From: Isurus oxyrinchus
Lineage: Eukaryota
DNA length: 64,000 nucleotides
NCBI GenBank assembly: GCA_026770705.1
Contig: JANJGN010000189.1
Location: 310,001 to 374,000, forward strand
Reading direction: 5' to 3'
Both the position numbers and the translations under genes were made by a program. This document shows, piece by piece, positions 37,221 to 64,000 of this stretch; the stretch's first letter is position 1, and each line of letters opens with the position of its first letter. The notes beneath the pieces are model-generated. The model saw nothing but the letters and a program-made list of their open reading frames with translations. It did no database searches and was not told the origin of the DNA.

Positions 37221-37410
37221 TATTAACAGATGTTAAATTATACATAATTCATAAGCTTCTCACAATCTTTTACAGCATGGAAAAAGGTGCAGCATTCAGA
37301 AAGCTCACTCAGAACCAATAAAAAAAAGTTGAGCAACATCATATTTCTGTTCATTACTATTTGGCCATGTTGGCTGCACACACCCCACAGCCCCGCTCCC
37401 TGTTTCACAC

Positions 37411-37659
37411 TCAGTTTTTCTGGAACCTGATCTGTGCGTATTCCGTGTCCTCGCTCCTGTGCACAGTCCTGTCACCGCCGGGCAGCTTTGAAAAGTTGAT
37501 GTTGGCGTAGAGAAGCTTGGCGGGATTGTCGGGGTTCCCATGTCCAACATCGCCTCCCACTGGACCTTCAGAGAGATCCCGGGGAGCTGGGGTCTCCCCC
37601 TCACTAGTTGTGTCTCTGGTTGTGTTCCGGGGCTCAGTAATCAGCACGTTCTGTTTACC
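37411..37659 (-). CDS. Gene C distal terminal exon with ITIM (LLYANI) and ITSM (TEYAQI)
   Basis: ctctgtag acceptor, phase 0, 249 nt; classic Siglec tail architecture. Confidence 0.9.
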   Translation of the reverse strand, partial: GKQNVLITEPRNTTRDTTSEGETPAPRDLSEGPVGGDVGHGNPDNPAKLLYANINFSKLPGGDRTVHRSEDTEYAQIRFQKN

Positions 37660-40600
37660 CTACAGAGAAATGGAAACAGAAGATATCCTCACATCAATTA
37701 CTGGTACTGATAGGGTTAAATTATTGTGCAGCCTCATTAGTGTCAGTCGTATCTCAGTGGGTTTAACCCTTTTTTTCACTCTCTTTCTCTGTCTCTCTCG
37801 CTTTCTCTCTCTCTTTATAATTTAATCTCTATCACACTCCAACAGTGCAGCACTCCCTCAATACTGACCCTCTGACAGTGCAGCACTCCCTCAGTGCTGA
37901 CCCTCCGACAATACAGCGCTCCCTCAGTACTGACCCTCTGTCAGTGCAGCACTCCCTCAGTACTGACCCTCCAACAGTGCAGCACTCCCTCAGTACTGAC
38001 CCTCCAACAGTGCAGCACTCCCTCGGTAATGGCTCTGGTGAGTGATGGCTTGGAATCTGCACACAGGTGCCTGGTGTGAGGCTCAATAACATGAACCTTG
38101 TAATCAGAGAGAGGATGAGAGAGAGGGAGAGAGGAGGGACAGAGACAGAGTGTTATTAATCTATTAATGTTTGTATTATAAATGCAAACTGTCTTTTTAA
38201 ACAGAGGTTTAGTCTGTGTGTGTGTCTGTGTGTATTTTAATTGGATTAAAGCCAGCCAGTCTGGGTGCTTTGATGTATAGTAGTTTTCAGATGTAAACAA
38301 AGAGGTAAAGTGGTAATTTGCATTTTTAAATAAAACATTAAATGCCTGAGAGTGAAATCTTAAACCAATCAACGTTTATATTACTAATAAAATTGATACG
38401 ATGAAAGGGGATTTATTATTGGAAGAGATGGAGTTCAAAGGTCCTGATGATACATTGCGAATTTACCTTCAAACAGAAGCCATAAGACCATCAGATATAG
38501 GAGGAGAAATTAGACCATTCGGTCCATCGAGTCTGCTCCACCATTCATACATGGCTGATATGTTTCACAAACCCCATTCTCCCACCTTCTCTCCTAACCT
38601 TTGATCCCCTGACCAATCAAGAGCCCATCAATCTCCGTCTTCCTTACACTCAAGAGCTGGGTATAACTTGAGCAGTTTTGTGTGTGCAGAACAGAGGCTT
38701 GTAACATCAAAGCAGCTGTAAGCCTACACCTGTCTGCAAAGGAACCAAAGTGAAAGGAACCTCATTTGGAATTTGTGAGGTGAAAATGCTTTGCCTGGGT
38801 GTCTGCTTAAAGATAATGGGTTGTCTTAGAGGAGATTAGTTTGAGAATTTGTTAAAAATTTATGATGATACTAGTTTGTAGCCATGTGCATATGTTTAAC
38901 TTGTGTAAATTAATATATGTCTCAAGTAGTTTGATATAAAACCATCTCAAGAACTGGTGGTCTTATTCCTGAATTTAGAGCTGCATCTCAAACATTCCAC
39001 TGGGAAATATAGGTTATGACAGTTGTTTAAAGTTTCCCTCTGGGATTTTAAACAACAGCCTTTACCAGTTTCTGTGTCATAATAGAGAGACAGCATGATA
39101 CTGAACCATTGCTGACTCCACAGATACAAATCAGTGGGTAACTGGGCTGGGAATCTGGGACATGTGTTGTCTACACACTGAGATTGAAGCTTTGGAGTGA
39201 GTGTAAACAGCTCCTGTACCTGGTGCTTCACACAGAGTGAACTGGGGGTCAATGCAATGTCTCTGGTCCCTGAAACTCTCTCCTCCATCGCTGTCTTTCT
39301 CCTGCAATAACACAATATGACACTGTGGTTATCATATAGCAGAGAGTCAGTGCAGCACAGACATAGAGCACACTGTAACCTTACACCAATGACTGGACTG
39401 TCTCTTTAAATCACTTCTGCACAAAGCACAGAATCTAGAATCTTGACACCATCCAGGACAAAGCAGCCCGATTGATCTACACCCCATCCCCCACATTAAA
39501 CATTCACTCCCTCCACCATGAACACACAGTGGCAGCAGTGTGTGTACCATCTACAAGATGCACTGCAGCAACTCAGCAAGGCTCCTTCAACAGCACCTTC
39601 CAAACCCACGAACTCTACCATCTAGAAGGACAAGGGCAGCAGACACATGGGAACACCACCACCTGGAAGTTCCCCTCCAAGTCACTCACCATCCTGACTT
39701 GGAAATATATCACCGTTCCTTCATTGTCGCTGGGTCAAAATCCTGGAACTCCCTCTCTAACAGCACTGTGGGTGTACCTACACCACATGGACCGCAGCGG
39801 GTCAAGAAGGCAGCTCACCACCACCTTCTCAAGGGCAATTAGGGATGGGCATTAATGCTGACATCACCAGTGACAGACACATTCGATGAAAGAATTAAAA
39901 ATCTCACAGCTCAATGTATTTATTGTGACCCTGCTGCACACACTCCCTGTCGAAGGAGCCTTTGTGGTTCTATTGTTAATCGAAGCAGATCAGAGTTACT
40001 ACAACCACTTGCATTTATATAGCACCTTCAATGTAGCAAAATGTCCTAAGGCTCATCTGGGGATTGTTAGTGACATCTTCACCTGACTCTGAGGCACATG
40101 AGGAGATATTAGGGACAGGAGACCAACAGCTGAGTCAACAAAGTCAGTTATTAACGGGCATCTTAAAGGAGGAGCTGGAGATAGGGAATGAGAGACAGAC
40201 ACAGAAAGAAAGACAGAGACAGGGAGAGAGAGAGAGAGAGAGAGGGAGAGAGCGAGAGAGAGAGGGAGAGAGAGAGAGAGAGAGAGAAAGACAGTGAATC
40301 TCTATCCCCAATGGCTCAGCATCCAGTCCTCTCTGGAGAAGCATTTCATTCCAAACCACACCAACCGCAGCCCAATTCCATCCCTTCCTCCCTCTTTCCC
40401 CCTCTCCCCCAGTGGGTGTTTCCTGTTCCCAGGAATCTCAATCACTACCCCCACCCCCATACCTCCTCACTCACTCTCCCCATTTCTCATTCAGTTATGC
40501 TCGAACCTGATCTGTGCGTATTCCGTCTCCACTTCCCTGTGGACAGACCCATCACCACTGGACATCCTCAAGACTTGGGGATTGGCCTAGAGAAACTCTT

Positions 40601-43600
40601 CAGGTTTGTCAGGGTTCCCATGTCCAACATCGCCTCCCACTGCATCTTCAGAGAGACCCCAGGGAGCTGGGGTCTCCCCCTCGCCAGTTGCGTCTCTCTT
40701 TGTGTTCTGGGGCTCAGTAATCAGCACGTTCTGTTTACCCTACAGAGAAATCGAAACAGAAGTTATCCTCACATCATTTACTGGCACTGATAGGGTTAAA
40801 TTATTGTGCAGCCTTGTTAATGTCAGTCGTGTCTCAGTTGGTTTAACCCTCTCTCTCATGTCATATGAAAGATACCACCTATGGCAGTGCAACGCTCCCT
40901 CAGGACTGACCCTCCGACAGTGCAGCACTCCCTCAGTACTGACCCTCCGACAGTGCAGCGCTCCCTCATTACTGACCCTCCGACAGTGCAGCGCTCCCTC
41001 AGTACTGACACTCCGACAGTGCAGCACTCCCTCAGTACTGACCCTCTGTCAGTCTTGCACTCCCTCGGTAATGGCTCTGGTGAGTGACAGTTGGATTCTG
41101 CACTCAAGTGTCTGGTGTGAAGCTCATTAACATGCACCTTGTAATCAGAGAGAGGATGAGAGAGAGAGAAAGAGAGAGAGAGAGAAAGAAAGGGAGGTTG
41201 GGATAGAGAGAGAGACTGTCATGATGCGATTAATAAATATCATGTTATTGGAAATTATTTTTATTCACATCGGGGTTTAGTCTGTGGGTGTGTCTCTGTG
41301 TGTTTTAATTGGATTAAAGCCAGCCAGTCTGGGTATTTGATGTATAGTAGTTTTGAGATGTAAACTGAGGCATAAAAATTTGTATTTTTAAACAGAGCAT
41401 TCAATGCCTGAGAGTGAAATCTTAAACCAATCAACATTTATTTTATTGATAAAATTGATACTATGACAGAGGATTTATTGTTTGAAGGGATGGAGTTCAA
41501 AGGTCCTGATGATACAATTAGAATTTACATTCAAAGAGAAGAGCTGGGTATAACTTGAGCAGTTTTGTGTGTGCAGAGCAGAGGCTTGTAACATCAAAGC
41601 AGCTGTAAGCCTACACCTGTCTGCAAAGGAACCAAAGTGAAAGGAACCTCATTTGGAATTTGTGAGGTGAAAATGCTTTGCCTGGGTGTCTGCTTAAATT
41701 CTATGGGTTATCTTAGAGGAGATTAGTTTGGGAATTTGTTAAAAAGTTATGATAATACTAGTTTGTAGCCATGTGCATATGTTTAACTTGTGTTAATTAA
41801 TAAATGGCTCATGTAGTTTGATATAAAACCATCTCGAGAACTGGTGGTCTTATTCCTGAATTTAGAGCTGCATCTCAAACATTCCACTGGGAAATATAGG
41901 TTATGACAGTTGTTTAAAGTTTCCCTCTGGGATTTTAAACAACAGTCTTTACCAGTTGCTGTGTCATAACAGAGAGACAGCATGATACTGAAACATTGCT
42001 GACTCCACAGGTACAAATCAGTGGGTAACTGGGCTGGGAATCTGGGACACGTGTTGTCTACACACTGAGATTGAAGCTTTGGAGTGAGTGTAAACAGCTC
42101 CTGTACCTGGTGCTTCACAGAGAGTGAACTGGGGCTCAATGCAATGTCACTGGTCCCTGAAACTCTCTCCTCCATCGCTGTCTTTCTCCTGCAATAACAC
42201 AATATCACACTGTGGTTATCATATAGCAGAGAGTCAGTGCAGCACAGACACAGAGCCCACTGTTAGCTTACACCAACGACTGGACTGTCTCTTTAAATCA
42301 CCTCTGCACAAAGCACAGAATCAAGACGCTTGACACCATCCAGGACAAAGCAGCTCGATTGATCCATACCACATCCACCACATTAAACATTCACTCCCTC
42401 CACCACGAACACACAGTGGAAGCAGTGTGTGTACCATCTACAAGATGCACTGCAGCAACTCAGCAAGGCTCCTTCAACAGCACCTTCCAAACCCACGACC
42501 TCTACCATCTAGAAGGACAAGGGCAGCAGACACATGGGAACACCACCACCTGGAAGTTCCCCTCCAAGTCACTCACCATCCTGACTTGGAAATATATCAC
42601 CGTTCCTTCACTGTCGCTGGGTCAAAATCCTGGAACTCCCTCTCTAACAACACTGTGGGTGTACCTACACCACATAGACTGTAGTGGGTCAAGAAGGCAG
42701 CTCACCACCTCTTTCTCAAGGGGCAATTGGGAATGGGCAATTAGTATTGTCCACGCCAATGACAGCCACATTCGATGAAAGAATTTAAAATCTCACAGCT
42801 TAGGAGGAAGCCACTCAGCCCATCGTGCCTGTGCTGGCCTTTTGTAAAAACTGTCCAATTAGTCCTAAGCAAATGTTTAGATTAAAATCAAGTTAAATCT
42901 TCAGACTTACTTTCTCACACAGATGAAGATGAAGATTCCAGCCAGGAAAACACTCAACATGATCCCAGCCGTGAACAATCCTACTGTCCATTTACTGGAG
43001 TCTCTACCTGTAAAAACAGCCATTAATTACTGCACTACAGGTTTACAATGATGCTCCGATGTATCTCGAGAAGCGATACACTCACTCAATGTTTAAATAC
43101 TCATTCTCGGGCAATGCTGACATTTATTGTCCATCCCTAGTTTCCCCTTGAGAAGGTGGTGGGGGGTCTTCCTCCTGAACCACTGGTTTGTCCCAAACTG
43201 GAAGACCAGTTCAGAGGGCAGGTAAGAGTTAACCATGTTGGTGTCTGAGACTGGAGTCACATATACACCCAGACCTGTTAAAATGGACAGGTTTCGCTCC
43301 CTTAAGATCATTAGTGACCCATATTATATATGTAATTTCTATATATATGTATCAACTACCCTCCCTAAAATAATCAATTATCACCTCAATTTCACGCTGT
43401 TGTTTGTGGGATCTTGCTGTGCACAAATCAGCTGTTGCGTTTCCAACATGATAACAGTGAGCTCACTTCGAAACTGCTTTACTGGTTATCAAGAGTTTTG
43501 GGAATTCCTAAGTATTTTATCAACGCAAGTCTTATATTTCGATTTAATCCATGTAACATTTATATATAATATTTATCAATGTGATCCCTATAGCATAAAT

Positions 43601-46600
43601 TTATAATATTTATCAATATAATCTATGTAACATTTATATATAATTTTTATCCATTTAATTTCTGTAATATTTATATATAATGTTTCTCGATTTAATCCAT
43701 GTAACATTTATATATAATATTTATCAATGTAACATATGTAACATTTATATATAATATTTATCCATTTAATCTGTGTAACATTTATATATAATTTTTATCA
43801 ACGTAATCTATGTAACATTTATATAAAATGTTTCTCGATGCAATCGATGTAACATTTATATATAATATTTATCAATGTAATCTATGTAACATTTATATAT
43901 AATGTTTCTCGATGTAATCTATGTAATGTTTATATATAATATTTAGTCGTTTGGGAGGAGAACCTGAGTATTGCTGAGAAAGGACATTTTGTCAAAGCTT
44001 TCTGTCTTGCACCCAATGAAGCAGCTTATCTGGGGGAGAGGGTTCCAGATTTCCACTCCCCTTTGTGTGAAGAAGTGTTTCCTGACATCACCCCCTGAAC
44101 GGCCTGGCTCCAATTTGACCAAGTGTTGCCATTGTCACATGAGGTCAGGTGATTCAAAGCTTGGTCAAAGGGTTATGTTGTAAACAGCATCTTAGAGGAG
44201 GTAGAGAGAGAGGTGGAGTGGTTGAGGGAGGGAATTCTCGAGTTTAGGGATCAATCCAGCTGAGTGGAGATCGATCCTGAGCGAGTCTCTCACCTTTGAC
44301 CCACAGATACATCTTGAACATGGCTTCCCCATGTGGGTTTTGAACCGAGCAGGATGCAATCACTCCCCCCTCATCCTGGGGTCTCATCAGGGTGAGGAAA
44401 CCAGTCACCAGATGCCCATCTCTGACCTGCCACGACACAAAACCTCCGTGTGTTTGGTTACCACTGATGTTCGCACTGGGCAGGTGCCAGGTGAGGTCTC
44501 CGGGTGGGTTGGAGGTGGCCACACAGACGCAGGTGACCCCCTCTGATCTCCGAGTGCACTCCGACTGCTGGGAAATCTCCGGCTTATCTGAGGAGGGAAG
44601 GACAACAATGAGACAACGTCATAGCAAAGTTAGAGCGTAAGATAGAATCTTCACACTGAAACACTCATTCCTGCCTTTGTTACCTCTGCACTCAACTATC
44701 CCAACACTCTCCTGCCCGACCTCCCATCTTCCACTCTCCGTAAACATCAGCTCATCCCAAACTCTGCTGTCCCCATGTCCTAACTCACACCGAGTCCCGT
44801 TCACACATCACTCCCTGTTGGTCACTGAGCTACACTGGCTCCCGGTCCGACAATACCACAATTTTAAAATTAACATCGTTTCAAATCCCTCCTTACTCCC
44901 TCCCTATCTCTGTAACCTCCTCCAGAACCTTCAACCCTCCCTATCTCTGTAACCTCATCCAGCCGCTTCAACCCTCTCTATCTCTGTAACCTCCTCCAGC
45001 CCCTACAACCTTCCTTATCTCTGTAAACTCCTCCAGCCTCTACAACCCTCCGAGATCTCGATGCACCTCCAATTCCAGCCTCTTGACCTTCCCCCGATTC
45101 CTATCGCTCCACCATTGGCAGCCGTGCCTTCAGCTGCCTGGATCCTAACCTCTGGAATTCCCTCCCTCATTTCTCACCTCCTTCGGACAAAATCTGACCA
45201 CCATCAAAAGCATCTTCCCTTCACCCCCACCCCGTTGGCATTCCACAGGGATCATTCCCTCCAGGACACCCTGGTCCACTCCTCCATCACCCCTAGCACC
45301 TCAACCCTCTCCGATGACATCTTCCCATGTATTTGCAGAAGGTGCAACACCTGCCCCTTTACTTCCTCCCCCCTCACTGTCCAATGACCCAAACACTCCT
45401 TCCAGGTGAAGTAGCGCTTCATGCAGACTTCCTTCAATATAATCTACTGCATTCATTGCTCCCAGTGTGGTTTCCTCTACATTGGAGACACCAAACACAG
45501 ACTGGGTGATCGCTCTGATGAACACCTTCGGTCTGTCCACAAGCATGACCCAGACCTCCCTGTCGCTTGCCATTTTAACACCCCACCCTGCTCTCTTACC
45601 CACATGTCCGTCCTTGGCCTGCTGCATTGTTCCAGTGAAGCCCAACGCAAACTGGAGGAACAGCACCTCATCTTCCGACCAGGCACTTTACAGCCTTCCG
45701 GACTGAATATTGAGATCAACAATTCCTGGTCATGAACTCTCTCCTCGATCTTCACTGCTTTTTGAACTTTTTTTTATGTATTCATTTTAATTGTTTTATT
45801 TGTTAACTGTTTTCCACTTATTTTTATTATTACTATTTGAAATTCATTTCCATTTTTCTTGATTGTTTTATCCGCAGATTTTAGTCTATTTTCGATCTTT
45901 ATTCCCTCCACCGTCCCCTCCCCCTGCCACACCCCCACGAGGGCCATCTGTCTCTTTCCAGAGTGCTTACCCTGGTCCGCCCATTATCACACTCTGCTTA
46001 ATGTCACCATTAGCACCTCCTTTATCCAATACCACCACTGTTAACAACCCTTTGACCTTTTGTTTATGACATCTTCCACAATCTCTCCATTGCCTCCACC
46101 TATCGCTGGTTTTCTATCCAGCTCCACCTGTCCCATCGCCCCCCCTTAGACAGGATATATTTCACCACATGTCTACTTCCCTTTAGCTCTGAAGAGGAGT
46201 CTTACGGACTCCAAACGCTAACCCTGTCTTTCTCTCCACAGATGCTGCCAGATGCTCAGAATCAGCTGGATGGACAGAAAGACCAATGAGTGGCTTAGAT
46301 CAAGAGGAGAAGTTCAGCAATTAAAAGGGTTGTTCAGGACAGTTAGAGAGAGAAAGGTCGTCAAGTACGGAGATTGGAAACGAAGACCTGACAGCCTTGT
46401 CCTGACAACCATTGAAGGAGAAACTGAGAGCAAAAACAGAAAGGGAGAGGAAAAATTGGGTGTGTGGATAACGTGGACTGAGCGAGGATTGAAGAAAACT
46501 GGATTAAAAACAACACGATCCCAATGGCTCCACGGAGACCACAGAGACAACAAACAAACAAATGTATCTCCACACTCACGTTCCACAGTGATGGTTATGA

Positions 46601-49600
46601 ACCCCTCCACTGCTCCATGTTCATTCTCTGCCACACACTGATAGTCTCCAGTGTCCCTGGATGTAACGTGAGGAATCACCAACCACAGCTCATTGTTGGA
46701 ACTTGTTCTGTTCATTGGGACATTAAGATGTCGCCACGTCAGGTTAGAAGCTGGGAAGCTCTCGACAGAGCAGATTATCACTGCAGAATTCCCCTCAATT
46801 ATATTGATCGATGAAGCGTTAATCATATCAAGAGAAGTAATTGAGAGATTCTGTGGTGCATCTAAAAATATATAAAGATTTTAATGTGAGCAAACACAGT
46901 GCACAGCAAAACTTCCTGTATCTTCTCGCTGTAACTGATGCCTGTGTGCATTTCTAGGCACCCTCTCTCAAGATAAGTTCCTATGTCACATTTACAATGG
47001 GCACTGCCTATGTAAACTGTCACACTGCAGGAGCATTCTCCCACCAGAGACCCTGCCCATCCAGATTTAAAGAAACAGCCTTTCACATCCTCAGAATGTC
47101 CCCAAGGGCTTGACAGGCAATGAATTATATTTGATCGATGGAGCACTGAGGGGTAAATCTACAATTCTCTGTTCAGGAGGTTGCTCATCCAATTCAGGGT
47201 CTTGTTGATCTGGAGTTTACCTTCCTTCAGCACAGAATCGGAGCTGACACCGAGACTCCAGTGCAGCACTGAGAGAGGAGAGGGAACTCATGTGTGTATG
47301 TGTGTGTGTGTGTTTGTGTTTCTGTACAAGTGAGTGTGTTTGTGTGTGTGTATGTGTGTGTGTGTGTGTTTGTGTTTCTGCACAAGTGATTNNNNNNNNN
47401 NNNNNNNNNNNNNNNNNNNNNNNNNNNNNNNNNNNNNNNNNNNNNNNNNNNNNNNNNNNNNNNNNNNNNNNNNNNNNNNNNNNNNNNNNNNNNNNNNNNN
47501 NNNNNNNNNNNNNNNNNNNNNNNNNNNNNNNNNNNNNNNNNNNATGTGCGTGCTTACGTGTGTGTGTGTGTGTGTGCATGTGTGTGTGCGTGTGTGTGTT
47601 GTGTGTGTGCACGTGTGCGTGTGAATGTGCGTGCTTACATGTGTGTGTGTGTCTGTTGGTGTGTGTCTGGTCTGTGTAACCTGTAAACCTAACCCTTCCA
47701 CACTGATGGTCACAAACATCCCCCACTACCAACAAATTTATCTCAGTAAGGAACATGGCACTGCCAACCTCGTCAATACCATCTTCTAAACAGGGGATTG
47801 GGTAGGAATCTGGTTTTATTGCTGCATTAACCTTGCTGTAATCTATGCAGAATCTGGTTGGAAATGAAATACCTGCTCCTTTTTACCTCCCTCCCTACGA
47901 TGGTATCGTTTTAACATATTGATGTGTCACAGCCGATTCTTTATTCTACAATCTGGGGTGTCTATCAAATAATTTACTTGACCAACCCTCCTAATTACCT
48001 TGTAGGGACCACTGAACTGCGCTTTCAGAGGCTCCCCCTGCCAAGGCAATGATACTAACAAGTCATCCCCCTGGTTGAGATGTTCGGGTCACAGCTTGCC
48101 TGTCTGCCCCATTCCTTCATCTCTGTTTGAGAAACTATAAGATGTTCTTGTGCCACTTTGGAGGCTCCCATGAGCCGTTCCTGAAACATGGACATATCAT
48201 CTGAAATAGAGGATTCATCCCTCTGTCCGGAATATCTTTCTTTGATGTATTTCAGACAGCCTCTTATCTCGTGTCCATAAGTTATTCCAAAAAGACTAAA
48301 ACCTACCGATTCAGTTGGTGAATCTTGTGTGGGAAATACAAGAAAATCCAGTCCTTTGTCCCAGTCATGGGGAGTTCATGACAATAGCTTCAATCATTGT
48401 TTTGAGGGTTTGTTGGTCCCTCTCTAAAGATCCCTGTGTCTATGGATGATATGCTGCGGACTTTAACTGTTTTATACCCAAATTACTCATTATGTTCGGA
48501 AAATTTTAAGACATAGAGATGGAACCTTGATCTGACTGGATCTCCAGCGGTAATCCATAATGGGTAAAAAAATTGGGTTAACTTCCCTATTCCTACTTTA
48601 GCTGTAATTGTTCCTAAAGGGATGGTCTCTGGAAATCGATTTGTCATATCCATCATAGTAAGGCCATACTGGAGTCTGGCTTTCATTTTCGATAATGGTC
48701 TAACACAGTCCACTAATGCTCGTATCCAATGATAACGGACAATTAGCTCACTGGAGGAGGGGAATCCACAAATATCCCCATCCTCAATGAAGGGGGAGCC
48801 CAGCACATCAGGGCAAAAGATAAGGCTGAAGCATTTGCTACAACAATTATCCATTTCTGTCTGGCGTAAAAATAAGTCAGGAAATGGTGCTCAACCAGGG
48901 CTTACAAAAGAAATTAGGGATAGTATTAGATCCAGAGAGGAGACATAAAATTGCCAGGGGAAGCAGCAATGCTGAGGATTGGGAGCAGTTTAGAATTCAG
49001 CAAAAGTGGACAAAAAGATTGATCAAGAAGGGGAAAATGGAACATGGGAGTAAACTTGCAGGGAACGTAAAAACCGACTGTAAAAGCTTCTATAAATATG
49101 TGAAGAGAGAAAGATTAGCAGTGACCGATGTAGGTTCCTTGCAGTCAGAAAGGGGGGAAATTCTAATGAGAAACAAAGAAATGGCAGAAGAACTGAACAT
49201 ATATTTTGGTTCTGTCTTCACAAAAGAGGACACAAATAATTTCCCAGGAATGTTAGGGAACCAAGTGTCTAGTGAGAGGGAGGAATTGAAGATAATCAGG
49301 ATTAGTTTTAAAAAATGAATCTGGAGAGATTAATGGGTTAAAGGTTGAACAGTCCCCAGGGCCTGAAAATCTACATCCCAGAGACTAACGGAAGTGACCC
49401 TGGAAATATTGGAAGCACTGGTGGTCATCCTCCAAAATTCTATAGGCTCTGGAGCAGTTCCTATAGATTGGAGAGTGGCAATTGTAACCCCACTATTTAA
49501 AATAGAAGGGAGAGAAAAATCAGAGAATTACAGACCAGTTAGTCTAACATCAGTCATGGGGAAAATGCTAGAGCCTATTATATAAGGTGTGCTAATGGAA

Positions 49601-52600
49601 CGCTTGGAAAGCTTTAATGGGATTCGACAAAATCAGCATGGGTTAATGAAAGGAAAATCATGGTTAACTAATCTATTGGAGATTTTGAAGATGTAACGAG
49701 TAGAATAGATAAGGGATAACCAGTGGATGTGGTGTATTTAGACTTCAAGAAGGCTTTTGATAAGGTCCTACATGAGGCTAGTGCGCAACATTAAAGCCCA
49801 TGGGATTGCGGGTAATTTACTGGCATGGATTGAGAATTGGTCGATAGACAGGAAACAGAGGGTCAGAATAAATTAGTCTTTATCTGAGTGGCAGGCGGTG
49901 ACTAGTGGTATACCACAGGGATCCGTGCTTGGGACCTAACTATTCATGATATATATAAATGACTTGGGTGAGGGAGCCAAGTGCAATATTTCCAGGTTTT
50001 CTGATGACACAACGCTGGGTAAGGGTGTGAGCTGTGAGGAGGATGCAAAGAGGCTTCAAGGCGATTTAGACAAGTTGTGTGTGTGGGCAAACACATGGCA
50101 GATGATGTGGATGAATGTGACATTGTAGGCTTTGGTGTGAAAAACAGAAAGGCAGAGTATTATTTAAATGGTGATATATTGCGAAATGTGGATGTACAAA
50201 GGGATCTGGGTGTCCTTGTGCACTAGCCAATGAAAGTAAACAGGCAGGTGCAGCAAGTAATTCGGAAGGCAAATGGTATGTTGGCCTTCATTGCAAGAGG
50301 ATTTGTGTTCAGGAGTAGGGATGTCTCACTGCAGTTATACAAGGTCTTGGTGAGACTGCACATGGGGTACTACGTGCCGTTTTGGTCTCCCTCCCTAAAA
50401 AAGGATAGACTTGCCGTCGAGAGAGCGCAGAGAAGGTTCTCTAGGCTGATACCAGGGGCGGCAGGACTGTCGTATGAGGAGAATTGGTACGACTGGGTCT
50501 GTATTCACTAGAGTTTAGAAGAATGAGAGGAGACCTGAATAAACGTAAGAAATTCTAACAGAGATAGACAGACTGGATGGAGGGAGGATGCATCCCTTGG
50601 TTGGGGAGTCTAAAACCAAGGGCGACAATCTCAGGATACAGGACAGGCCATTTTGGACTGAGATAGGGAAACATTTCTTCACTCAGAGGGTGGTCAATCT
50701 GTGGAATTCTCCATCACAGAGGCTGTGGAGGCCGGGTCACTGAGTGTATTCAAGAAAGAAACTGATAAATATTTTGATATTAGGGGCATCAAAGGGTACG
50801 GAGAGAAAGCGGGAATAAGGCTTTGAGATAGAGGGTCAGCCTTGATCATATTGAATGGCGGAGAAGGCTTGAAGGGCTGAATGTCCTAATCGTGCTCCTA
50901 GTTTCTATGTACCTAGGTATCTATAGAACTATCTCTCTCCGTGTTCTATTCTCATGTGACCTTGAGTAATTAATGATAAATACTATCTATTTACATTGTT
51001 AATATTAAACTTTTATACTACATCTCCCCCAAAATCTTTGACATCAATGAAGACAATATTTATATTATCCTATATTGTCTTTTAAGTTCAACCTTGGCCC
51101 CCTCTGCCTTATCAGGTAGGCATAAACAATCCCAAGGCTTAATACAGGAAGAGCTCTCCCTGGTCAATATCACTAATAAAAAAGGACCTGTTTTGTCTTC
51201 AACCCAGTGATGTTTGTGGGATCTTGCTCTGCACATTGTATCCTATTACAGCTAATATAGAATCAAGGGTGTCAGTACTTACCTTGTACAGTTAGTACAA
51301 GGGTCCGCTCCGATGAAACAGATGGATATCTCACTCTGCAGCAGAGAGTGTGTCCGTGGTGTTTGAGTGATGGGGTCAGGGTCAGAACAGAAGTATAGGT
51401 CAGAGTGACACCATGCTGAGTTACAGTGTTTGAGACTGATCCAGGTACGTCAGTGGGAGTGTCCCAGGTTAAGACAGGTGCAGCTGTTCCATTGCACGTT
51501 GTGTTGAAGGTGCAGCTTACATCCACACGCTTTCCTGCAATAATTTCAGCAGGGAATATCGTGGGTTTATCTGTGAAATCTAACAGACAGAGAATGGATC
51601 CTTTTAGAGAAATATAATGTGAAGCATCAGTTCAGATAGAAACCACAGTCCCACAAGAGAAAGCACTTTTACAAGGATGATATGAGAACTGAGAGGTTAC
51701 AATGATCAGGAAAGATTTTCTTGCTCTTTGGCAGTAGTGTTTCTGTCTCTCAGCTTAATACACGTTCACTCCGAGACATGTGAATTGAGAATACTGGATG
51801 AGAGAAGAGGCTGAGACCAGAGATTGGAGTTAAAAGCAGAATACTGTGGATGCTGGAAATCTGAAACAAAAACAAAAATTGCTGGAAAGACTCAGCAGGT
51901 CTGACAGTATCAGTGGAGAGGAAGACAGGGTTAACGTTTCGAGTCCGTATGACTCTTCATCAGACCAGAGGTTTGAGTTCACTGGCTTCTCATTTCCTCA
52001 GTGATCTGGGTGATTTATTACATTGTGGTTTGTTGGATCTTGCTGTGCACAAACTGCCTGCTGTGTTTTACATCTGTGACTACAATTCAGGAATAATTTC
52101 ATTGGCTGTGAAGGGATTTGGATCCTCCTGAGGTGGTAAATTGCGCTGCAGAAATGCACATCTTTCTTTTATCGATACGTCAGACTTTTAAACAGGACAG
52201 GAGAGATTGATGGGAGTGGTAACCTGATAATACAGTTAATGCTTTTCATCATTGATATTAAAGTGAGTATTAGACGTTGCTTTAGGACTGAACTGGAAGC
52301 TATCACCAGGTTATTGAGAATCAGACAGTGTGTTATAATAAGCTGTGTTTTGTGTTAATATGTAAATGTCACAGTTTGTGTTATTTCCCATTGAGTGTTG
52401 AATGTGAATTGTTGAGTAATTATAACACAGCACTTACCAGAAACGTGAAGCTGGGTTACAGGATAGTAGTTGTAACTATTACTGCTGTCAAATTCTATTC
52501 TGAAAAAATAAGGTCCTGCATCTTCCCGTCTGATGTTGTTTATAATCAGGGAACAGTCGCCATCTTTCAGGTCTCCAGACAGCCGGGTCCGATGGCGGAA

Positions 52601-55600
52601 CCGTGGTAACTCGTGACTGTGATCCTTGGAGTGAAAGGCAATAGGAGCCCAGGGAATCTGTTTCTCATTATTAAACCAGACTCCACCTCGCGGTTGGTTT
52701 TCCAGACACGATGGATAACTGTAATGACAAGGAATCTGTACACACGAACCTTCCTGCGCTGTCACCTCTCGTGGAGTGTCACCTTTCCACTCTTGTGAGG
52801 GTTCAACTGGGGAGAGAAATCTCAATATTTAACTCTGGATGGTTTGTGGATCCACTAGACTCAACTTTACAGATGAGGCTGAATTGGGGGGATGGTTAAT
52901 ACTGAGGAGAATGGCAACAAATTATTTTGGCAGGATGAATAGAAAAACAGAATATTATTTAAATGGAGACAGGCTGCAGAATGCAGGACAGAGGGATCTG
53001 GGTGTCCTTGTACATGAATCACAGAAAGTCAGCATTCAGGAACACCACGGAATGAGGAAGGCAAGTGGAATGTTGGCCTTTATTGCAAAGGGATGGAGTA
53101 TAAAAGGAGGGAAGTCTTGCAACAGCTGCACAGGGTGAGATTGTATCAGGAGCAGTGTGTACAGTTCTGGTCTCCTTACTTAGGGAGGGATAGACTCTGC
53201 ATTGGAGGCAGTTCAGAGGAGGTTCACTGGGCTGATTCCTGGGATTAAAGGGTTTGTCCTGTGAGGAAATGGTGAGCAGGTTGGGCCTGTATCCATTGGA
53301 GTTTAGAAGAATGAGGGGTGACCTTATTGAAACATATCCGATTCCGAGGGGGCTTGACAGGGTGGATGCTGGGAGGATGTTTGCCCCTCGTGGGGGAATC
53401 TAGAACCAGGGAGCACAGTTTCGGAATGAGGACTCTCCCATTTAAGACTGAGATGAGGAGGAATTTCCTCTCTCAGAGGGGCGCTAGCCTGTGGAATTCT
53501 CTTCCCCAGAGAGCAGTGGAGGCTGGGCCATTGAATAGACTCAAGGCTGAGTGAGGCAGGTTTTTGATCGACAAGGGAGTCAAGGGTTTGGGGGACAGGC
53601 AGGAAAATGGAGTTAAGGCCACAACCAGATCTGCGAGAGTAGGCTCGGGGGGCCGAATGGCCTGCTCCTGTCCCTATTTCTTATGTTCCTACATTCTTAC
53701 CTTCTTGAAATATTAAAGCTGCAGAATAAACATGCAAGTGACTGACCTGCTCGACCCACCTTCCATCTGGGTGTCCCATGGGGAGGACCCTTCCTGAGCC
53801 AGATCCACCAGCCAACATGGTCTGGATCTGAGCACAGGAGACACGGGGGGGTGTGACTAACAGGCTCCTTGTGACAGGCCCCGTCTGTCCAATGGCTGGC
53901 TTTCAGCTGCCAAGGCCAGAGTGGTCCTTGCTAAAACCGGCTCAGGACAGGTCAGGACACCTGTGCAGACCCCCTCCAGCGCTGCAGCCTCTGTACAAAC
54001 CCCTCATGCGCTTGTGGAGAGACACAAACAAGGCTGCACATTACCGAGGAGAATCCCCTCTACGGACTAAGGGGCTGACTCATCACCTTAAACTCAGCAA
54101 ATGAGGAGGCTCTCACTCGGTATCGGGACTTGGCATTCACTCAATAAAAATAATCAAATGACATTTTGGTCAGAAATCTAAGGAGGTTGTACATTCCCTC
54201 AAAAATAAGACTCAAGCTGGGGTCGAGGGTCAAAGGGCAACAACTTATATTTACACAACAACTTGAACATGACAAATCACCCCAAGGTGCTACACAGGAG
54301 CGTCATAAAACAAAGTATGTCACCCAGACACATGTGGAGATATTAGCGACAGCTGGCCAGAAGAGGACGGTGTTATGGAGAATCTTCAAAGAGGGATGAA
54401 ATGGATAGAGAGAGAGAGAGAGAGGGACGGAGAGGGGTTGAGGGAGGGTATTACAGAGCTTGGGCCCCAGGCAGCTGAAGGCACGGCCGCCGATGTTGGA
54501 GTGATGGGACCGGGGGATGGTCAAGAGGCTGGAATTGGAGGAGAGCAGAGACCTCAGAGGGTTGGAGGGGCTGGAGGAGGTTACAGAGATAGGGAGGGTT
54601 GTAGTGATTGGAGGAGTTACAGAGATAGGGAGGGTTGTAGAGGCTGGAAAATTGAAGAGAGATTGGGAGAGTGTAGGGTATGGAGGAGTTTGCAGAGCTA
54701 GAGAGGTTTGTAGTGGCTGGAGGAGGTTGCAGAGATTGGTAGGTTTGTTGGGCAGGATGATTTTACAGATATAGGGAAGCGGTGGAGGCTTGAAGAGGTT
54801 ACAGAGAATGGGATGGTTGTAGGTACTGGAGGAGGATGAGGAGATTACAGGGATAATGAGGAAACAAAGATGAAAATTGTGACATTGAGACTTTGCTTGA
54901 CCAGGAGCCAGTCTCGGTCATCGAGCAGAGCGGGTGATGAGGGAACGGGACTTGGTGTGAGTAAGGACGTGGTCAGCAGTTTTGGATGGCCTCAAGTTTA
55001 TGGAGTGTAGAGCGTGTTGTTGGAACAGTCGAGTCTGGAGGTAATGAAGGCGTGGATGAGGGTTTCAGCAGCAGATGAGCTGAGACAGGGTGATGTCGTG
55101 CGATGTTACGGAGGTGGAAATAGACGGTGTTAGTGAGGGCGCAGATGTGAGGCCGGAAGCTCATCTCAGGATCAAATGGGACAACAAAGCTGTGAACAGA
55201 TTGGCTTCAATCTCAGAGAGCTGCCAGGGAGAGGAATGGAGTTGGTAGCGAGGGAACAGAGTTTGGAGTGGGGAATGAAGACAATGGCTTCAGTCTTTCC
55301 AATATTTAATTGGAGGGAATTTCTGCCCATCCAGTACTGGATGTCGGATAAGCAGCCTGATAATTTAGCAGCAGTGGAGGAGTCGAGAGAGGTGGTGGTG
55401 AGGTAGAGCTGGGGATCCTCAGTGGACAGGTGAAAACTAACAGTGTTCAGATGATGCTGCAAAGCCATTGCAAGTGATTCTCTGGCTACGATGAGATGGA
55501 TAAGAATGGAGCCAGGGGAGAGCAGTCCCACCCAGCTGGACAACAGTGGAGAGGTGTTGGAGGAGGATGGTGTGGTCGAGCATGTCAAAGGCTGCAGACA

Positions 55601-56466
55601 GATCGAGAAGGACGAGGAGGGAAAGTTGACCTTTGTCACAGTCACACAGGATGCCATTTGTGACCTTGATAAGAGCTGTTTCAGCACAGTGGCTGGGGTG
55701 GGAACCTGATTGGAGGGATTCAAACATGGAGTTCCGGGAAAGATGGGAACGGATTCGGGAGATGGAAACACGTTCAAGGACTTTGCAGGGGAAAGAGAGG
55801 CTGGAGATGGGACGGGGGTTTACACGGACAGTGTGAGGGGTGGAAGGTGTAGTGGGGAGGAGACACTTCACTCAGGGGGGAGGTGTCATCACCCCTCAGC
55901 TCGGTTTACGTTACAGCTATGATGTGGATTCAATCACACACAATAAGCTCATGGATCTGGGAGCAGAAATAGACAAATCATTAAAAATAGTGACGCTGGT
56001 TAACACGGCCAAAAAACAAGCAAATCAAACACTATTATTTCCCATTGAGTGTTGAATGTGAATTGTTGAGTAATTATAACACAGCACTTACCAGAAACGT
56101 GAAGCTGGGTTTCAGGACGGTCGTTGTATCTATTCCTGTTGTCAAATTCTAGGCTGAATAAATAATATCCTGCATCTTCCCGTCTGACATTGTTTATAAT
56201 CAGGGAACAGTCACCATCTTTCAGGTCTCCAGACAGCCGGGTCCGATGGTGGAACCTTATTAACTTGCGATTGTGATTCTTGGAGTGAAAGGCTATAGAC
56301 CGTTCATTCCATGTTTCCCAATTCCTTCTCATATACCAGAATCCGACTGGTGATCTCGCTACTAAATATGATGGATAACTGTAATTACATGGAATCTGTA
56401 CACACGAACCTTCCTGCGCTGTCACCTCTCCTGGAGTGTTGACTTTCCACACTTGTGATAGTCCAA
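37411..56466 (-). CDS. Gene C: Siglec-like (CD33-related/MAG-like) inhibitory receptor, (V)-V-C2-C2-C2-TM-ITIM-ITSM; leader exon not found in window
   Basis: Exons 56092-56466, 52438-52806, 51283-51579, 46580-46861, 44294-44587, 42911-43007, 42107-42188 or 39220-39301, 37411-37659; all open and phase compatible. Confidence 0.8.
39220..39301 (-). CDS. Gene C middle cytoplasmic exon, distal copy
   Basis: 82 nt, phase 2 to 0, RKTAMEERVSGTRDIALTPSSLCVKHQ; ttgcag and gtacag sites. Confidence 0.8.
40491..40739 (-). CDS. Gene C proximal terminal exon with premature stop at the ITIM tyrosine codon
   Basis: 249-nt paralogue of 37411-37659; TAC>TAG at 40587-40589; downstream TEYAQI still recognisable; AATAAA (minus) at 39919-39924. 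Confidence 0.8.
42107..42188 (-). CDS. Gene C middle cytoplasmic exon, proximal copy
   Basis: 82 nt, phase 2 to 0, RKTAMEERVSGTSDIALSPSSLSVKHQ. Confidence 0.85.
42911..43007 (-). CDS. Gene C TM exon GRDSSKWTVGLFTAGIMLSVFLAGIFIFICVRK
   Basis: tttttacag acceptor, gtaagt donor, uncharged helix. Confidence 0.92.
43540..43945 (+). repeat. 37-bp AT-rich minisatellite (~11 units)
   Basis: TATGTAACATTTATATATAATATTTATCAATGTAATC in tandem. Confidence 0.9.
44294..44587 (-). CDS. Gene C membrane-proximal C2 exon (MAG D5 / CD33-related Siglec type)
   Basis: KPEISQQSEC..VTCVCVATSNPPGDLTW..SCSVQNPHG four-Cys pattern; 294 nt, phase 1-1. Confidence 0.9.
45190..46250 (+). mobile_element. Penelope-like element fragment
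   Basis: NIIYCIHCSQCGFLYIGDTKHRLGDRSDEH, a GIY-YIG endonuclease motif. Confidence 0.85.
46250..46560 (+). mobile_element. RTE-type LINE 3' fragment
   Basis: MLRISWMDRKTNE motif. Confidence 0.55.
46580..46861 (-). CDS. Gene C C2 exon shared with genes A and B
   Basis: 282 nt; 4 mismatches versus 13854-14135 by manual comparison. Confidence 0.92.
47715..48725 (-). mobile_element. Gypsy (Gmr1-type) pol remnant, integrase upstream of RT
   Basis: VDCVRPL..RFPETIPL..SAAYHP (integrase) at 48.7-48.4 kb precedes RFCIDYSKVNAAIKPDSYPIP (RT) at 47.86 kb. Confidence 0.75.
48880..50910 (+). mobile_element. CR1 LINE ORF2 fragment, degraded
   Basis: ENYRPVSLTSV, YINDL..FSDDT, LYKVLVRLH. Confidence 0.95.
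51283..51579 (-). CDS. Gene C Siglec domain-2 C2 exon
   Basis: FTDKPTI..SCTFNTTCNGTAAPVLTW..LTLTPSLKHHGHTLCC; 297 nt, phase 1-1. Confidence 0.92.
52438..52806 (-). CDS. Gene C V-set exon V1 (essential Arg present, YFFR)
   Basis: 369 nt, intact splice sites, Siglec Cys pattern. Confidence 0.93.
52862..53690 (+). mobile_element. CR1 3' fragment
   Basis: QRDLGVLVHESQK..FKTEMRRNFLSQR. Confidence 0.9.
54235..55850 (-). mobile_element. L2-type LINE fragment
   Basis: RPISSLSFPCKVLER, ETALIKVTN, LLVLLDLSAAFD, LQLNIGKTE. Confidence 0.88.
56092..56466 (-). CDS. Upstream V-set exon V2 (Arg replaced by Ser, YYLFS)
   Basis: 375 nt, intact ccgtag and gtaagt sites, open frame, paralogue of V1. Confidence 0.88.
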
Positions 56467-56869
56467 CTACGGAGAGAAATATCAATATTTAACTCTGAAT
56501 GTTTTCTCAATCCACTGTACTCAATATCCACCCCCTCCATCACTGGGGCACAGTGGCTGCAGTCTGGATAATCCACAGGTCACACAATGAATGCCCCAAG
56601 GTTTTACCACAGATCGAAGAGAATTCTGGACACAGGAGTGGACAAGTTCATTCTACATTGGCTCATGGCCCACAGGAACCTATTTAGTGAAGTCAGTCTG
56701 CCACCCAACACAGTGTCTACAAGACGCACTGATTGAAGTGAGTTCACTGCTGATTTACAATGTAGGACAATGGATTTGGAGCCTTCAGAATTCCCCCATT
56801 ATCACCATCATGAATCAGTAATTGGCCTAGCTGTCCTAGATCCTCAGTGTCTAAGGCAGTGGTTCCTAT

Positions 56870-59115
56870 TGTGATGTAAGTATAATAATTTTCATAATAT
56901 TTTATAGTATATTGTGAAGTAGGTTTATGGGGGTACGCATGATGGGTCTGCATGTGATTTAAGTACATTTGGAGTTAATTAGATTGGAAGTTTAAAATGA
57001 TCAAAAGGAGCTAGGTGCTTGACATGCTATTGAGGAAACATGGATGCTGCTTAGCATGGAAGGTATGAAGAGAATTTGCATTTTTATTTCAATGAAGGGG
57101 TTGTTGGATTTCAAAGGAATCTTAGCTTGTTTACAACTAGCCAGATAAGCAAGACTAAGGAATGTGCTTATTTTTCTCAAAGGCTCCTGGCAATATGGGC
57201 ACCACGAAAGAATTTGTTATGAGGAAGAGACAGTTTCAAAAACATTTGGAACAATAGAATTTTCATGTTACAAAGAGACAAATATATATCTATCAGGGAG
57301 AATGAAAGGCTATGTGTCAGAATGCCATGTAAGATCTAACACGAGTGTGTGATATAGTCTTAATGAAACCTCAAGCATTTGTGCACAAGCCTGCTATCCA
57401 ACAGAACTGAAGTTGGGGAAAAGCCACTTGGAATTCCTCTGTGCAGGGTATTGCTATTGTATTGTGTTAACTTGCTGAGTTGTTTTAAATCTAACATCTA
57501 TTTTTAGTCTGTTGCCTTAAAGGGAGTGTAACTGGGAGTCAGGTTAATTTGGAATTTTAAGAATTATTATAGTGGTAATTGTAGAGTTATGTATGTGCTT
57601 GAAATCTTTTATTTTGAGAGCAAGAATATTAATTTAATTTTCAAATCTCTAAAGGTCTTGGTGTAATTATTGCTTCTGAATTCAGTGCACACATCTCATA
57701 ATAAATACAAATTGCAAAATCATTATGATAGTGTGACCACCTTTCTCTCATGGACTTGGTCTGCCTGGCACACATCACCTGCCAAGTGATAACACTGTTG
57801 TAATATGCCTTTCAGGGACAGCAGCATGACATCACTCGAGGGGAAGTGTGTCATGTGATTTTAGAACTGGGGATAGCTTAAGTAAGTTCTATGTGTATTT
57901 GTGTGTGTTAGGGATAAGGTCTATCTTTAAGTTCAAGTTTAGTTTGTTTTCTGTATTTGTGTGTTAAGAAAGGGGGAAACTTCAGTTTTGGTTTCATTTT
58001 CATTTAGCAATCTAATGGGGTTTGATGTCTCTTGAAGGAAAGTCAATACAAACACAAGGTGTAAGAAACTGTGCTGTTGCTAAGCAACAGTGATCCAGAG
58101 GGACGGACCCATAGAGACAGAGAAAAACAGAAATGTGCTTTCAGTTTGGTTGAAAGGAGTTGCCAGGAGAAGCAGCAAAGGAGCGGGACAGATAGTCAGT
58201 CCCAAAGTAAAGAAGAAGCCAAAACCATCGAGTGGAACAGGAGAAAGAGCCAAGAAGACCTTCTACTCCAAAGAAGATCAGGAATCTGAAAAAGGTCCTG
58301 TTAAGTCGAGATAAGATTGAGGAGCAGAGGAGGGATCCAAGCTAAAAGAGAAAAAGCAAAAGGACACAGACCTAAAGCAAAAAAGGCTTATTAGAAGCCA
58401 GAAGATCATAGGAGACAGCTAAATGTTGATGTCTTCTTACTATGACCATGTGAAGCCATGGTGTTCCATTGGCATGACTGAGCATTGGAGAGACAACGCG
58501 TAGAAGGAAGGCTGAATGCATGTGGCGATCCAGGGGGCAGGAACATGGGAAGGAGAGTTTGAAATCATGGAAGTGGACCCTTGTGGAAGGTGTCTGAGTG
58601 AAAGTGTCATGTTAGAGAAGATTCCAAAGAGAGCACTTGACGAGTAGAGATTGGAAACTCTCATGTGAAAGATACAGTTTTGGAAGACCAGTTGCCTCAT
58701 GGTGAAACAAGTGTCTGGAGTCAGTTGAGCTGAAACCCATAGCATTTGTTCCAATTGGGGTCTATCACTTGGATACAGAATGTGGTGTCCCTGACGCCAG
58801 GTCGTCTATTGGTTTGCATGAACTGTGTACTTAGTGTGAACATGAGAGTATAAGATAGTTATTGTAACTTGTATTCTACTTATGAATCTGTAAATGTATA
58901 GGTCTGGGTGAAGGAGTAATGTAATATAATCAGTCTTTCCTAGTTTAATAAATGTTTTATTCTTTTGTTAGAAGGTCATCAGATGATTCCTGTGACTCTG
59001 TTCAGTAGCCGCACTCCACATTCCTAAATAAAAAATAAAAGTTAGGACCTATCAAGCTGAGTTCCACCCTGGGATCTGACTTGCCCAGTAGTAACATCAG
59101 CTGGGATGATAACAC
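56870..59115 (+). mobile_element. Two adjacent LTR-like elements (~56870-57795 and ~57797-59113)
   Basis: TG..(GATAA)CA termini, AATAAA, similarity to the LTR-like inserts at 38150-39080 and 41217-41970. Confidence 0.5.
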
Positions 59116-59129
59116 CATCCAGTCCAAGT

Positions 59130-62100: not shown

Positions 62101-63200
62101 CACTCTAAGCACTATTTTCAGTTTCTTTGGTGAACCTAGGGACATGATTACAGATAATCTGGAATATCAATCACACTACTTCTTCTCCTCATTACCCCAG
62201 ATCTAACAGCCTAGCTGAATGAATGATTCACACAGTGAAATCCCTAATTCTCAAATGTAGACAGACCAAGCAAGATCCACACATTGCAATGTTACATCTG
62301 AGATCAACACCTACAACTGCAACTTTGTTAAATTCATTCATGGGATGTGGGAGTCACTGGCCAGGCCAGGATTTATTACCCATCCCTAATGTAAGAGATA
62401 ACCACATTGACGTGGAGTCTGGAGTCACATGTCTGCCAGATAATTTTGTTCCCTAAAGGGCACTGGTGAGCCAGGTGGGATTTCTAACAATGGTTTTGTG
62501 GTCATCACTAGACTTTGAATTTCATATTCTTATTAAATTCAAATTCCATCATCTATTATGGCCGGATTTGAACCCATATTCTCAGGATATTACCCTGGGT
62601 CTCTGAATTACTCGTCCAGCAACAATACCACTACACCATCACCTCACCTTATTCCATCACTGACAGAGATCATGTTTCGTGTGCCAGTAGTGACCAATTT
62701 CGCTACTCTTACCCATTCTACTCTCTCAGAAACCAGAGAGCAACTTTTAAAACTACAAGAGAAGATAAGGAATGTTCATGATAAAAATGGAGGTGCAGAG
62801 TTGCCAAGTTTACAGTTGGGACAAGTTCACATCCAGGATCCCACAGAAGGTTCATGATCACCAGCCGAGGTGACAAGGATTTGTTCAGAACCAAGGGGCT
62901 ATGGAGTCAAACACACAAGGGCACAGCGGTGAGGTGGAACCGAGGATAACTCAGATCCATTCCCGCTCCTATTCCATCGAGGAGCAGATCCCACATGAAA
63001 TCAGGATCAGCATCCAAGGGTGACAATCCCACAGATCACGGTGAGCAGTTAAAGACACCTCCAGACAAGGTAACCAGCACAAGATCTGGGTGTACCAGAA
63101 GGTTAAATCCACACTTTAGAGACTCAAATATTCAACAGTTCCATGCACTTATGTAATTGCCAATAAACATGAACATGATATGAGAAACCGCTTGTTCCCT
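59130..63200 (+). mobile_element. Degraded Ty3/Gypsy LTR retrotransposon (gag-PR-partial pol)
   Basis: ..ACA|TGGTG PBS-like junction at ~59305; gag knuckle CPAFQQSCKACGRKGH; protease KIDTGASANI; integrase C-terminal remnants at 62.1-62.9 kb; many stops. Confidence 0.85.
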
Positions 63201-63417
63201 GCCCTTCTCAAAGATCCATTCCTGCAGCAGGAGCCTGAAGAGTTATTGAAAAGGGACTTAATTTATCGGATTGTAGAATGATTCGGAACAGAAGGAAGCC
63301 ATTTGGCCCATCGAGCCTGTGCTGGGCCTTTGAAAGATCTGTCCAGTTAGTCCCACTCTAACCTCTGCTCTCTCCTCCACAGCCCTGCAAAATGTCCCCT
63401 TCAAGTATTTATCCAGT

Positions 63418-63960
63418 TCCTGCAAGGCTTGTGGCAGAAAGGGCCATTGACAGCGGCAGGGCACTAGAGCAAAGGCTGATGCCACTACAAAGAGCTGTGC
63501 GCTGATCCAAACTAACCCTACACAACGGGGAACCTTCAAGCAATAAGAATGACCATCCCCTATCCCATCAGGAACATAGACATGTGGTGACTGACAAACC
63601 AGGAAATGGCGATGATGTGCATGGCGAGACGAGGAGCGGTGATCGATATTCCACCTCTCACACATATCCTGACGTGGCTTGCCAATAAATTGTGGATTGA
63701 GGTCTTTATTGATCTCTCTGGGCACATCAAATAAACTGAAAATGTCCCAAGGGGTGGGATTTGCTGGCCCCACCCACTGCCAGGATTGTCCGGACCAGCC
63801 GAAAGCCAAAGGATTTATGTCTGTCCCAGTCTCAGAAACTACTCCATCACCTCAGTTCATGACATAACATTGAAATATGCAGAAAGTTTCAACAATATTG
63901 GCAATTTCAAGGGAGCTGGAACATCACACCTGCAGGAGAATGCAAGTCTGTCAGACTCCT
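63418..63960 (+). mobile_element. Second fragment of the same Gypsy family
   Basis: Matches 60557-60970 and then 61480-61605. Confidence 0.85.
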
Positions 63961-64000
63961 TGCATTAAAATAATTGCAATCCAACTTTGCCATTCTATCT

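Follow-up and report, generated by a model that had tools for sequence, protein, structure and literature searches.

Arginine-bearing and arginine-less Siglec-type V-set exons in a putative tandem-V receptor gene of the shark Isurus oxyrinchus

Results

Two V-set exons upstream of one set of C2, transmembrane and tail exons

The window analysed in this work is a stretch of 64,000 nucleotides (nt) from the lamniform shark Isurus oxyrinchus (assembly GCA_026770705.1, contig JANJGN010000189.1, positions 310,001 to 374,000), and its subject is a putative CD33-like Siglec receptor gene on the minus strand, in which two V-set immunoglobulin (Ig) exons, termed V2 and V1 in the direction of transcription, lie upstream of C2-set, transmembrane and cytoplasmic exons (Table 1; positions are those of the window). 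A preliminary description of this DNA had proposed two intact V-set exons that start with the end of a signal peptide, and this is borne out on the minus strand: both frames are open and in phase 1-1, the acceptors are pyrimidine-rich AG sites, the donors read GTAAGT, and the exons begin with (V)GLSQVW in V2 and (V)EPSQEW in V1, which we refer to as GLS and EPS starts. Both exons exceed the Pfam cut-offs for V-set and Ig_CD22 (V-set E = 1.5e-13 for V2 and 2e-12 for V1), and the solved structures closest to V1 are Siglec-5, -8 and -7, CD33 and MAG, with a best PDB sequence match at E 5e-16. Together with the cysteine positions, these matches identify both as Siglec-type V-set domains with the CxxxxC motif and the intra-sheet cysteine pair. 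V1 and V2 share their terminal 20 nt exactly. The ratio of nonsynonymous to synonymous divergence between the two is about 0.95 (0.215/0.225; 122 codons), a comparison of paralogues in which relaxation and positive selection are indistinguishable.

Table 1. Exons, codons and intronic features of the V2-V1 gene
Feature	Position	Strand	Remarks
Leader-intron remnant	56467..56724	minus	88% identical to intron of the broken V exon at 3539-3913
V2 exon	56092..56466 (375 nt)	minus	Distal-type Siglec V-set; GLS start, 3 Cys, F-strand Ser
V2 first Cys	56402..56404	minus	Counterpart of interdomain Cys CD33 C36 / MAG C37
V2 Ser codon AGC at the essential-Arg position	56153..56155	minus	One base away from AGA
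V2-V1 intron	52807..56091	minus	About 56 nt of shared donor flank, repeats and reverse transcriptase fragment, about 58 nt of shared acceptor flank
V1 exon	52438..52806 (369 nt)	minus	Internal-type V-set; EPS start, 4 Cys, F-strand Arg
Cryptic acceptor 88 nt into V1, frameshifting	52718..52740	minus	V-end joint here in run X1
V1 extra BC-loop Cys (YPSCL)	52706..52708	minus	Proposed (putative) disulfide partner of V2 first Cys
V1 Arg codon AGA, F strand	52499-52501	minus	Aligned to YFFR of Siglec-5/-8
First C2-set exon (CTFNTTC)	51283..51579	minus	Second Cys of the motif aligns with CD33 C169
Second C2/I-type Ig exon	46580..46861	minus	
Membrane-proximal Ig exon	44294..44587	minus	
Transmembrane exon	42911..43007	minus	Hydrophobic core without charged residue
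Cytoplasmic exon 1 (copy A)	42107..42188	minus	
Tail A terminal exon	40490..40739	minus	Both Tyr motifs lost through in-frame TAG at 40587-40589
Cytoplasmic exon 1 (copy B)	39220..39301	minus	
Tail B terminal exon	37411..37659	minus	Intact; LLYANI and distal TEYAQI

The reading frame from V2 to tail B stays open over 680 codons and ends with an immunoreceptor tyrosine-based inhibitory motif (ITIM), LLYANI, and the distal motif TEYAQI, so that the type I transmembrane segment and ITIM/ITIM-like tail characteristic of CD33-like Siglecs are both present, the former being neutral. The ITIM consensus and the names of Ig loops are used here in their common sense. In the first C2 exon the CTFNTTC motif is the one that aligns, via the white-shark protein P0141, with the C2 cysteine pair of CD33 and MAG, from which an interdomain bond is predicted. 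The same exon carries an additional cysteine (LCCRV, compared with LSCRV in the homologues viewed) that would be unpaired.

Two tail copies do exist, as had been described earlier, and the duplication that produced them (37396-42800, minus strand) is common to white- and basking-shark models. The combinatorial isoforms that had been derived from them find less support. The TAG in tail A sits where homologues carry the first tyrosine and thus precedes any tyrosine motif, while tails A and B are chained in series in P0028 and P0149 (white shark) and P0003 (basking shark); the stop blocks such chaining at this locus.

The intron between the V exons and the region upstream of V2

Neither leader, C2 nor transmembrane exon was detected in the V2-V1 intron by tblastn with 115 homologues or by leader-peptide and leader-DNA scans. 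Dispersed repeats and, at 55440-55871, an RVT_1 fragment are present in it, and among the 11 open reading frames upstream of or between the V exons this RVT_1 domain is the single match above cut-off. One part of the intron, about 53620-54430, has no repeat match within the window.

Upstream of V2, homology to the leader intron of the neighbouring broken copy ends at 56724 and gives way to repeats. In that neighbouring copy the leader lies about 0.7 kb upstream of its V exon; the three leader scans (tblastn, peptide, DNA) detected only this broken leader, near 4616-4693. The stretch from 56878 to 64000, where the leader of the V2-V1 gene would be expected, is rich in repeats: 56878-57794 is an inverted match to 36168-37111 (72%), and a further match (92%) links 60557-60973 with 63418-63833.

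The F-strand arginine is present in V1 and replaced by serine in V2

The F-strand arginine is required for sialic acid binding, and its replacement abolishes binding in CD33 (R119A) and MAG (R118A) (PMC6669322, PMC5150538). The earlier distinction between V1 (PYFFR) and V2 is confirmed at the codon level (AGA versus AGC), and the PYFFR of V1 aligns with YFFR of solved Siglec-5 and Siglec-8. This hallmark of CD33-like Siglecs is thus found in V1 and is missing from V2, the outermost V domain seen.

Among 177 distinct full V domains, including the two from the window, the residue in this column is R in 160, K in 12, S in 3, Y in 1 and T in 1. The two other serines belong to stingray domains within tandem arrays, and one stingray array reads R,K,S,K. 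A tree was calculated for 60 of the 177 domains (lamniform domains and a few outgroups; bootstrap not fully settled; the partial P0135 and P0115 left out), and here V2 falls into a clade of 13 (support 100/98), beside two white-shark domains. Eleven of its 12 full-length clade-mates have Arg and one has Lys. Since the serine codon is one base from Arg and serine is private to V2 in this clade, the exchange is probably a recent and tolerated loss in a redundant domain. The contrast between an arginine-bearing V1 and an arginine-less V2 is probably incidental.

A different V exon in the window also lacks the arginine. It is intact (22719-23076, minus strand), belongs to another Siglec-like lineage, reads YYFYV at this position and is accompanied by C2 exons at about 20346-20651 and 19580-19855 (minus strand); the exons mapped with it include neither a leader nor a transmembrane exon. 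Its match in Heptranchias is 67% identical and has Tyr at the arginine position, as does a Pristiophorus model, and because of this shared Tyr the lineage appears from the sequences as an old, conserved arginine-less receptor.

Tandem V domains are widespread in elasmobranch gene models

Two to seven directly adjacent V domains occur in 31 of 115 homologous elasmobranch models (none in 84, two in 20, three in 6, four in 3, five in 1 and seven in 1); all family counts given here refer to computed gene models, among which are several isoforms of single loci and some fusions, and are not independent owing to shared ancestry. The closest proteins come from Cetorhinus (basking shark) and Carcharodon (white shark), with a best identity to a model domain of up to 95% for V1 and 81% for V2. 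White shark P0015 has the layout found here apart from the second C2, namely a V2-type domain, a V1-type domain, C2, proximal Ig domain and the same transmembrane segment and tail, and the order V2-type then V1-type recurs in white- and basking-shark models. In each of the 12 full-length clade-mates of V2 a further V domain comes next, and 10 of them are the first of their run.

V1 carries two features of internal V domains

By its sequence V1 bears two marks of a V domain that follows another V domain. The first is its fourth cysteine (YPSCL), located seven residues past the B-strand cysteine, a position close to that of the C2 interdomain cysteine at six residues past. A YP[SL]CL cysteine was found in 40 of 56 V-after-V domains as compared with 3 of 88 domains after a leader and 4 of 31 unplaced ones, and it is present in 11 of the 12 taxa that have V-after-V domains, sharks as well as rays. 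A looser first count of the BC-loop cysteine, in which seven rows without the CxxxxC pattern were dropped, had given 39 of 55 versus 5 of 87. The second mark is the EPS start, a degraded form of the residual signal-peptide end, which opens 15 of 55 V-after-V domains and none of 88 V-after-leader domains. More generally, the start motif begins with a charged residue in 23 of 55 domains after another V, 0 of 88 after a leader and 3 of 26 unplaced domains. According to the -3,-1 rule for signal peptidase, a charged residue at this start should impair cleavage of a signal peptide.

Downstream V domains without the BC-loop cysteine often have an extra cysteine elsewhere. It lies past the C strand in rays (P0014, P0016, P0154) and in monkey Siglec-12 (P0208), and in the V-V linker in Xenopus (P0181).

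Exon joints in contigs of related organisms and structure models

Four of 23 listed runs were compared with 51150-57000 at 93% likeness; the data are contigs throughout, and their RNA origin is a guess for each run. Relative to the window the contigs diverge by about 1-5%; runs X1 and X2 represent one sample from a related organism. X1 contains V ends joined to V starts, one of them exactly to 52806 and another to a GLS-type start, and furthermore a joint to the cryptic acceptor at 52718, which shifts the frame by 88 nt. In X2 a V end is joined to a similar V start, and a leader-like loose end is attached to a GLS-type V start. The V-to-C2 joint 52438/51579 is present in contigs of both runs. 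V-to-V splicing thus occurs in this family; given that V1 and V2 end in the same 20 nt, the joints do not demonstrate splicing of this V2 to this V1. In runs X4 and X15 there is no V-V joint among the joints listed, V2 is uncovered at 93% likeness, and contigs indicate presence only. X2 contigs lying upstream of V2 have the same depth (162) as those in the intron between V1 and C2, which is a hint only.

In AlphaFold models of two natural V-V proteins, P0141 (predicted template-modelling score, pTM, 0.55) and P0019 (pTM 0.43), each V domain folds well. Taken as one unit, the two V domains of P0019 can be superposed on the V-C2 pairs of Siglec-10 (Z 14.2, root mean square deviation, rmsd, 4.7 over 208 residues), CD33 (Z 14.0, rmsd 6.1 over 202) and Siglec-5 (Z 13.8, rmsd 6.0 over 200), compared with an rmsd of 9-21 Å for the other two-domain rows. 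The models weakly suggest that a V-V pair may be arranged like a Siglec V-C2 pair. Little was gained from a Foldseek search with the V-V-C2 model, in which the E-values for pIgR, CD33 and MAG were nearly equal.

Discussion

Siglec-like genes with two V domains, such as the one described here, are already present, but undescribed, in automatic shark annotations. On balance we favour the view that it encodes a tandem V2-V1-C2 inhibitory receptor, the outer domain of which recently lost sialic acid binding while the inner domain is the only candidate lectin site. V2 and V1 would then be consecutive exons of one CD33-like Siglec receptor, with leader-V2-V1-C2-C2-C2-transmembrane-tail B as the main product, an inhibitory ITIM receptor. 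Its leader would lie more than 7.5 kb upstream of V2, possibly together with further V exons, and occasional V skipping or mis-splicing would be expected as a secondary matter. From established Siglec chemistry V2 should be unable, and V1 able, to form the salt bridge to sialic acid, which makes V1 a predicted sialic acid lectin; V2 may serve as a cap or spacer or bind a non-sialic ligand. If V2 is the N-terminal domain, the protein is a Siglec-family member with an arginine-less first domain, like Siglec-XII.

Bonds between the first V cysteine and a C2 cysteine are established for CD33 (C36-C169) and MAG (C37-C165) (PMC6669322, PMC5150538). By analogy with the CD33 pattern, the first cysteine of V2 (Cys21), otherwise unpaired, is predicted to bond to the extra BC-loop cysteine of V1 (Cys33), and the first cysteine of V1 to the BC-loop cysteine of C2, which would yield a locked V-V-C2 rod. 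The conserved internal-domain cysteine is a more interesting lead than the contrast between the V domains at the arginine position, arginine loss on its own being ordinary in the fast-evolving Siglec family.

A number of observations weigh against a tandem receptor with a V-V disulfide. No leader exon was detected by tblastn, peptide and DNA scans in the 7.5 kb upstream of V2 (56467-64000). The contig joints are not locus-specific, and those of X1 and X2 stem from the one divergent sample. The predicted local distance difference test score of the V-V linker is below 50 in both the P0141 and the P0019 model. Sixteen of the 56 V-after-V domains do without the PSCL cysteine, and three white-shark models (P0138, P0142, P0146) have a PSCL V domain directly after the leader. 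Adjacent Siglec-type V domains also occur in models from frog, turtle, arowana and lynx (Xenopus laevis XP_041425635 reads R,Q,Q at the arginine position). In the 132 distant proteins to which these models and primate Siglec-12 belong, the BC-loop cysteine is present in just 1 of 21 adjacent pairs; a tandem V arrangement thus does not require such a cysteine. In P0135 and P0115, truncated white-shark models, a V2-type domain is seated directly on C2, and in P0136, an isoform from white shark, the distal V of P0015 is skipped, the inner V of that gene having a GLS start. The models are moreover computed, and some are plainly fused; P0003 starts with the transmembrane segment and tail of another gene.

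The absent leader could also mean that the locus is decaying, a retroelement insertion having separated or removed the leader, in which case V2, or the gene as a whole, would be a pseudogene or orphan of recent origin and the loss of the arginine neutral. The short leader distance in the neighbouring copy, the stop in tail A and the broken state of the neighbours (V exon at 3539-3913, leader at about 4616-4693) fit this explanation, as does the long terminal branch of V2 (0.23 compared with a median of 0.074; 23 differences from the nearest relative). Nevertheless, every exon from V2 to tail B is open and has canonical splice sites, and V2 departs from just 3 of 44 conserved columns (the median is 1 among 49 lamniform V domains), two of which also differ in the nearest relative. 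Moreover, an X2 contig covering 56523-56938 crosses the break at 56724, which hints weakly that the arrangement is shared and transcribed in a relative. We regard decay as unlikely.

The preliminary description had left a choice between a V-V receptor and alternative V cassettes that switch ligand specificity. The former is supported by the homologous models, the relative's V-to-V joints and the two marks on V1; support for a switch is weak. Under the cassette explanation leader-V1-C2 would bind sialic acid, leader-V2-C2 or V2-V1 would not, and the choice would be regulated. Equal phases permit any skip, the models P0136, P0135 and P0115 offer possible instances, and skipping of the V-domain exon is known for CD33 (PMC7426717, PMC6669322). 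However, the EPS start of V1 never follows a leader among the 88 domains mentioned above, a leader-V1 product would leave Cys33 of V1 free, and all 15 isoforms listed (of 20) for a basking-shark locus with seven V domains keep the identical seven. Serine is furthermore private to V2, the full-length clade-mates of which all precede another V and keep Arg or Lys. A regulated switch is accordingly rated as improbable, slightly more so than decay. That V2 belongs to a separate gene, or that its adjacency to V1 is an assembly error, is very unlikely: near-identical exons form a patchwork in the cluster, and six N gaps interrupt the window, but there is no N in 47544-64000, contigs from relatives cover a large part of the V2-V1 intron at about 95-99%, and the V2-type then V1-type order recurs in the two other sharks.

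A tandem V2-V1-C2 receptor has to be seen against the known Siglecs. With CD33, Siglec-5, -7, -8 and -10 and MAG the gene has in common the CxxxxC V motif, the F-strand arginine (in V1), the C2 interdomain cysteine and an ITIM plus distal tyrosine motif, and the V-C2 part of P0141 matches CD33 (E 2.7e-25). These proteins have one V domain, whereas the shark gene has a second one and the added BC-loop cysteine. Members of the same family are annotated in RefSeq as elasmobranch 'Siglec-12/13-like' proteins (Carcharodon XP_041037226, here P0015, and XP_041037141, P0141; Cetorhinus XP_078389683, P0003); these are automatic annotations, and their V2-type domains keep Arg or Lys, unlike V2.

Siglec-12, cited earlier as the two-V precedent, is a correct one for the number of V domains but not for a pair with and without arginine. 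Like the gene described here, primate Siglec-12 and Siglec-XII of humans have two N-terminal V-set domains before C2, and the human protein lost its arginine by R122C (PMC6288428). A review legend presents both human V domains as lacking the arginine (PMC6829431). In the Rhinopithecus Siglec-12 model both have it, and the second V is without the BC-loop cysteine and has an extra cysteine further along. An identity of about 34% and the nesting of V1 and V2 among shark V domains suggest that the primate duplication probably was independent, that is, a convergence with the shark.

Siglec-12 is treated by reviews as the two-V exception (PMC6829431), and just four regular Siglecs of fish are listed in a study of that group (PMC7226832). 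A literature search that left most subscription journals and supplements outside its range brought up no account of multi-V Siglecs in sharks or of a disulfide between V domains. More tentatively, and with clearly less confidence than in the tandem receptor itself, the gene might belong to an old shark and ray multi-V family with two to seven serial lectin domains, in which the internal V cysteine locks the domain above and valency is tuned by site loss (Arg to Ser or Lys) and V skipping; in this gene the outer site would be off and may have been turned to a ligand that is non-sialic or derived from a pathogen. If true, a tandem-V family of sharks and rays with a conserved extra cysteine would show that multivalent Siglecs arose early, and it would allow sialic acid binding by an internal V domain to be tested directly.

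Neighbouring genes in the window

Further members of the family lie on the minus strand of the window. One of them has the third V exon of this kind (3539-3913), which a stop codon and a frameshift interrupt; its leader exon (about 4616-4693) has a 1-nt deletion, and a partial C2 (2864-3013) and a transmembrane exon with short tail (1063-1200) follow downstream. The region 9196-14921 contains the 3' half of another family gene with two Ig exons, a transmembrane exon and three cytoplasmic exons with tyrosine motifs; no family-type V or first C2 exon of its own was found within the window. All three transmembrane/tail types of the homologues are located downstream of V2-V1 (about 43007, 12585 and 1200).

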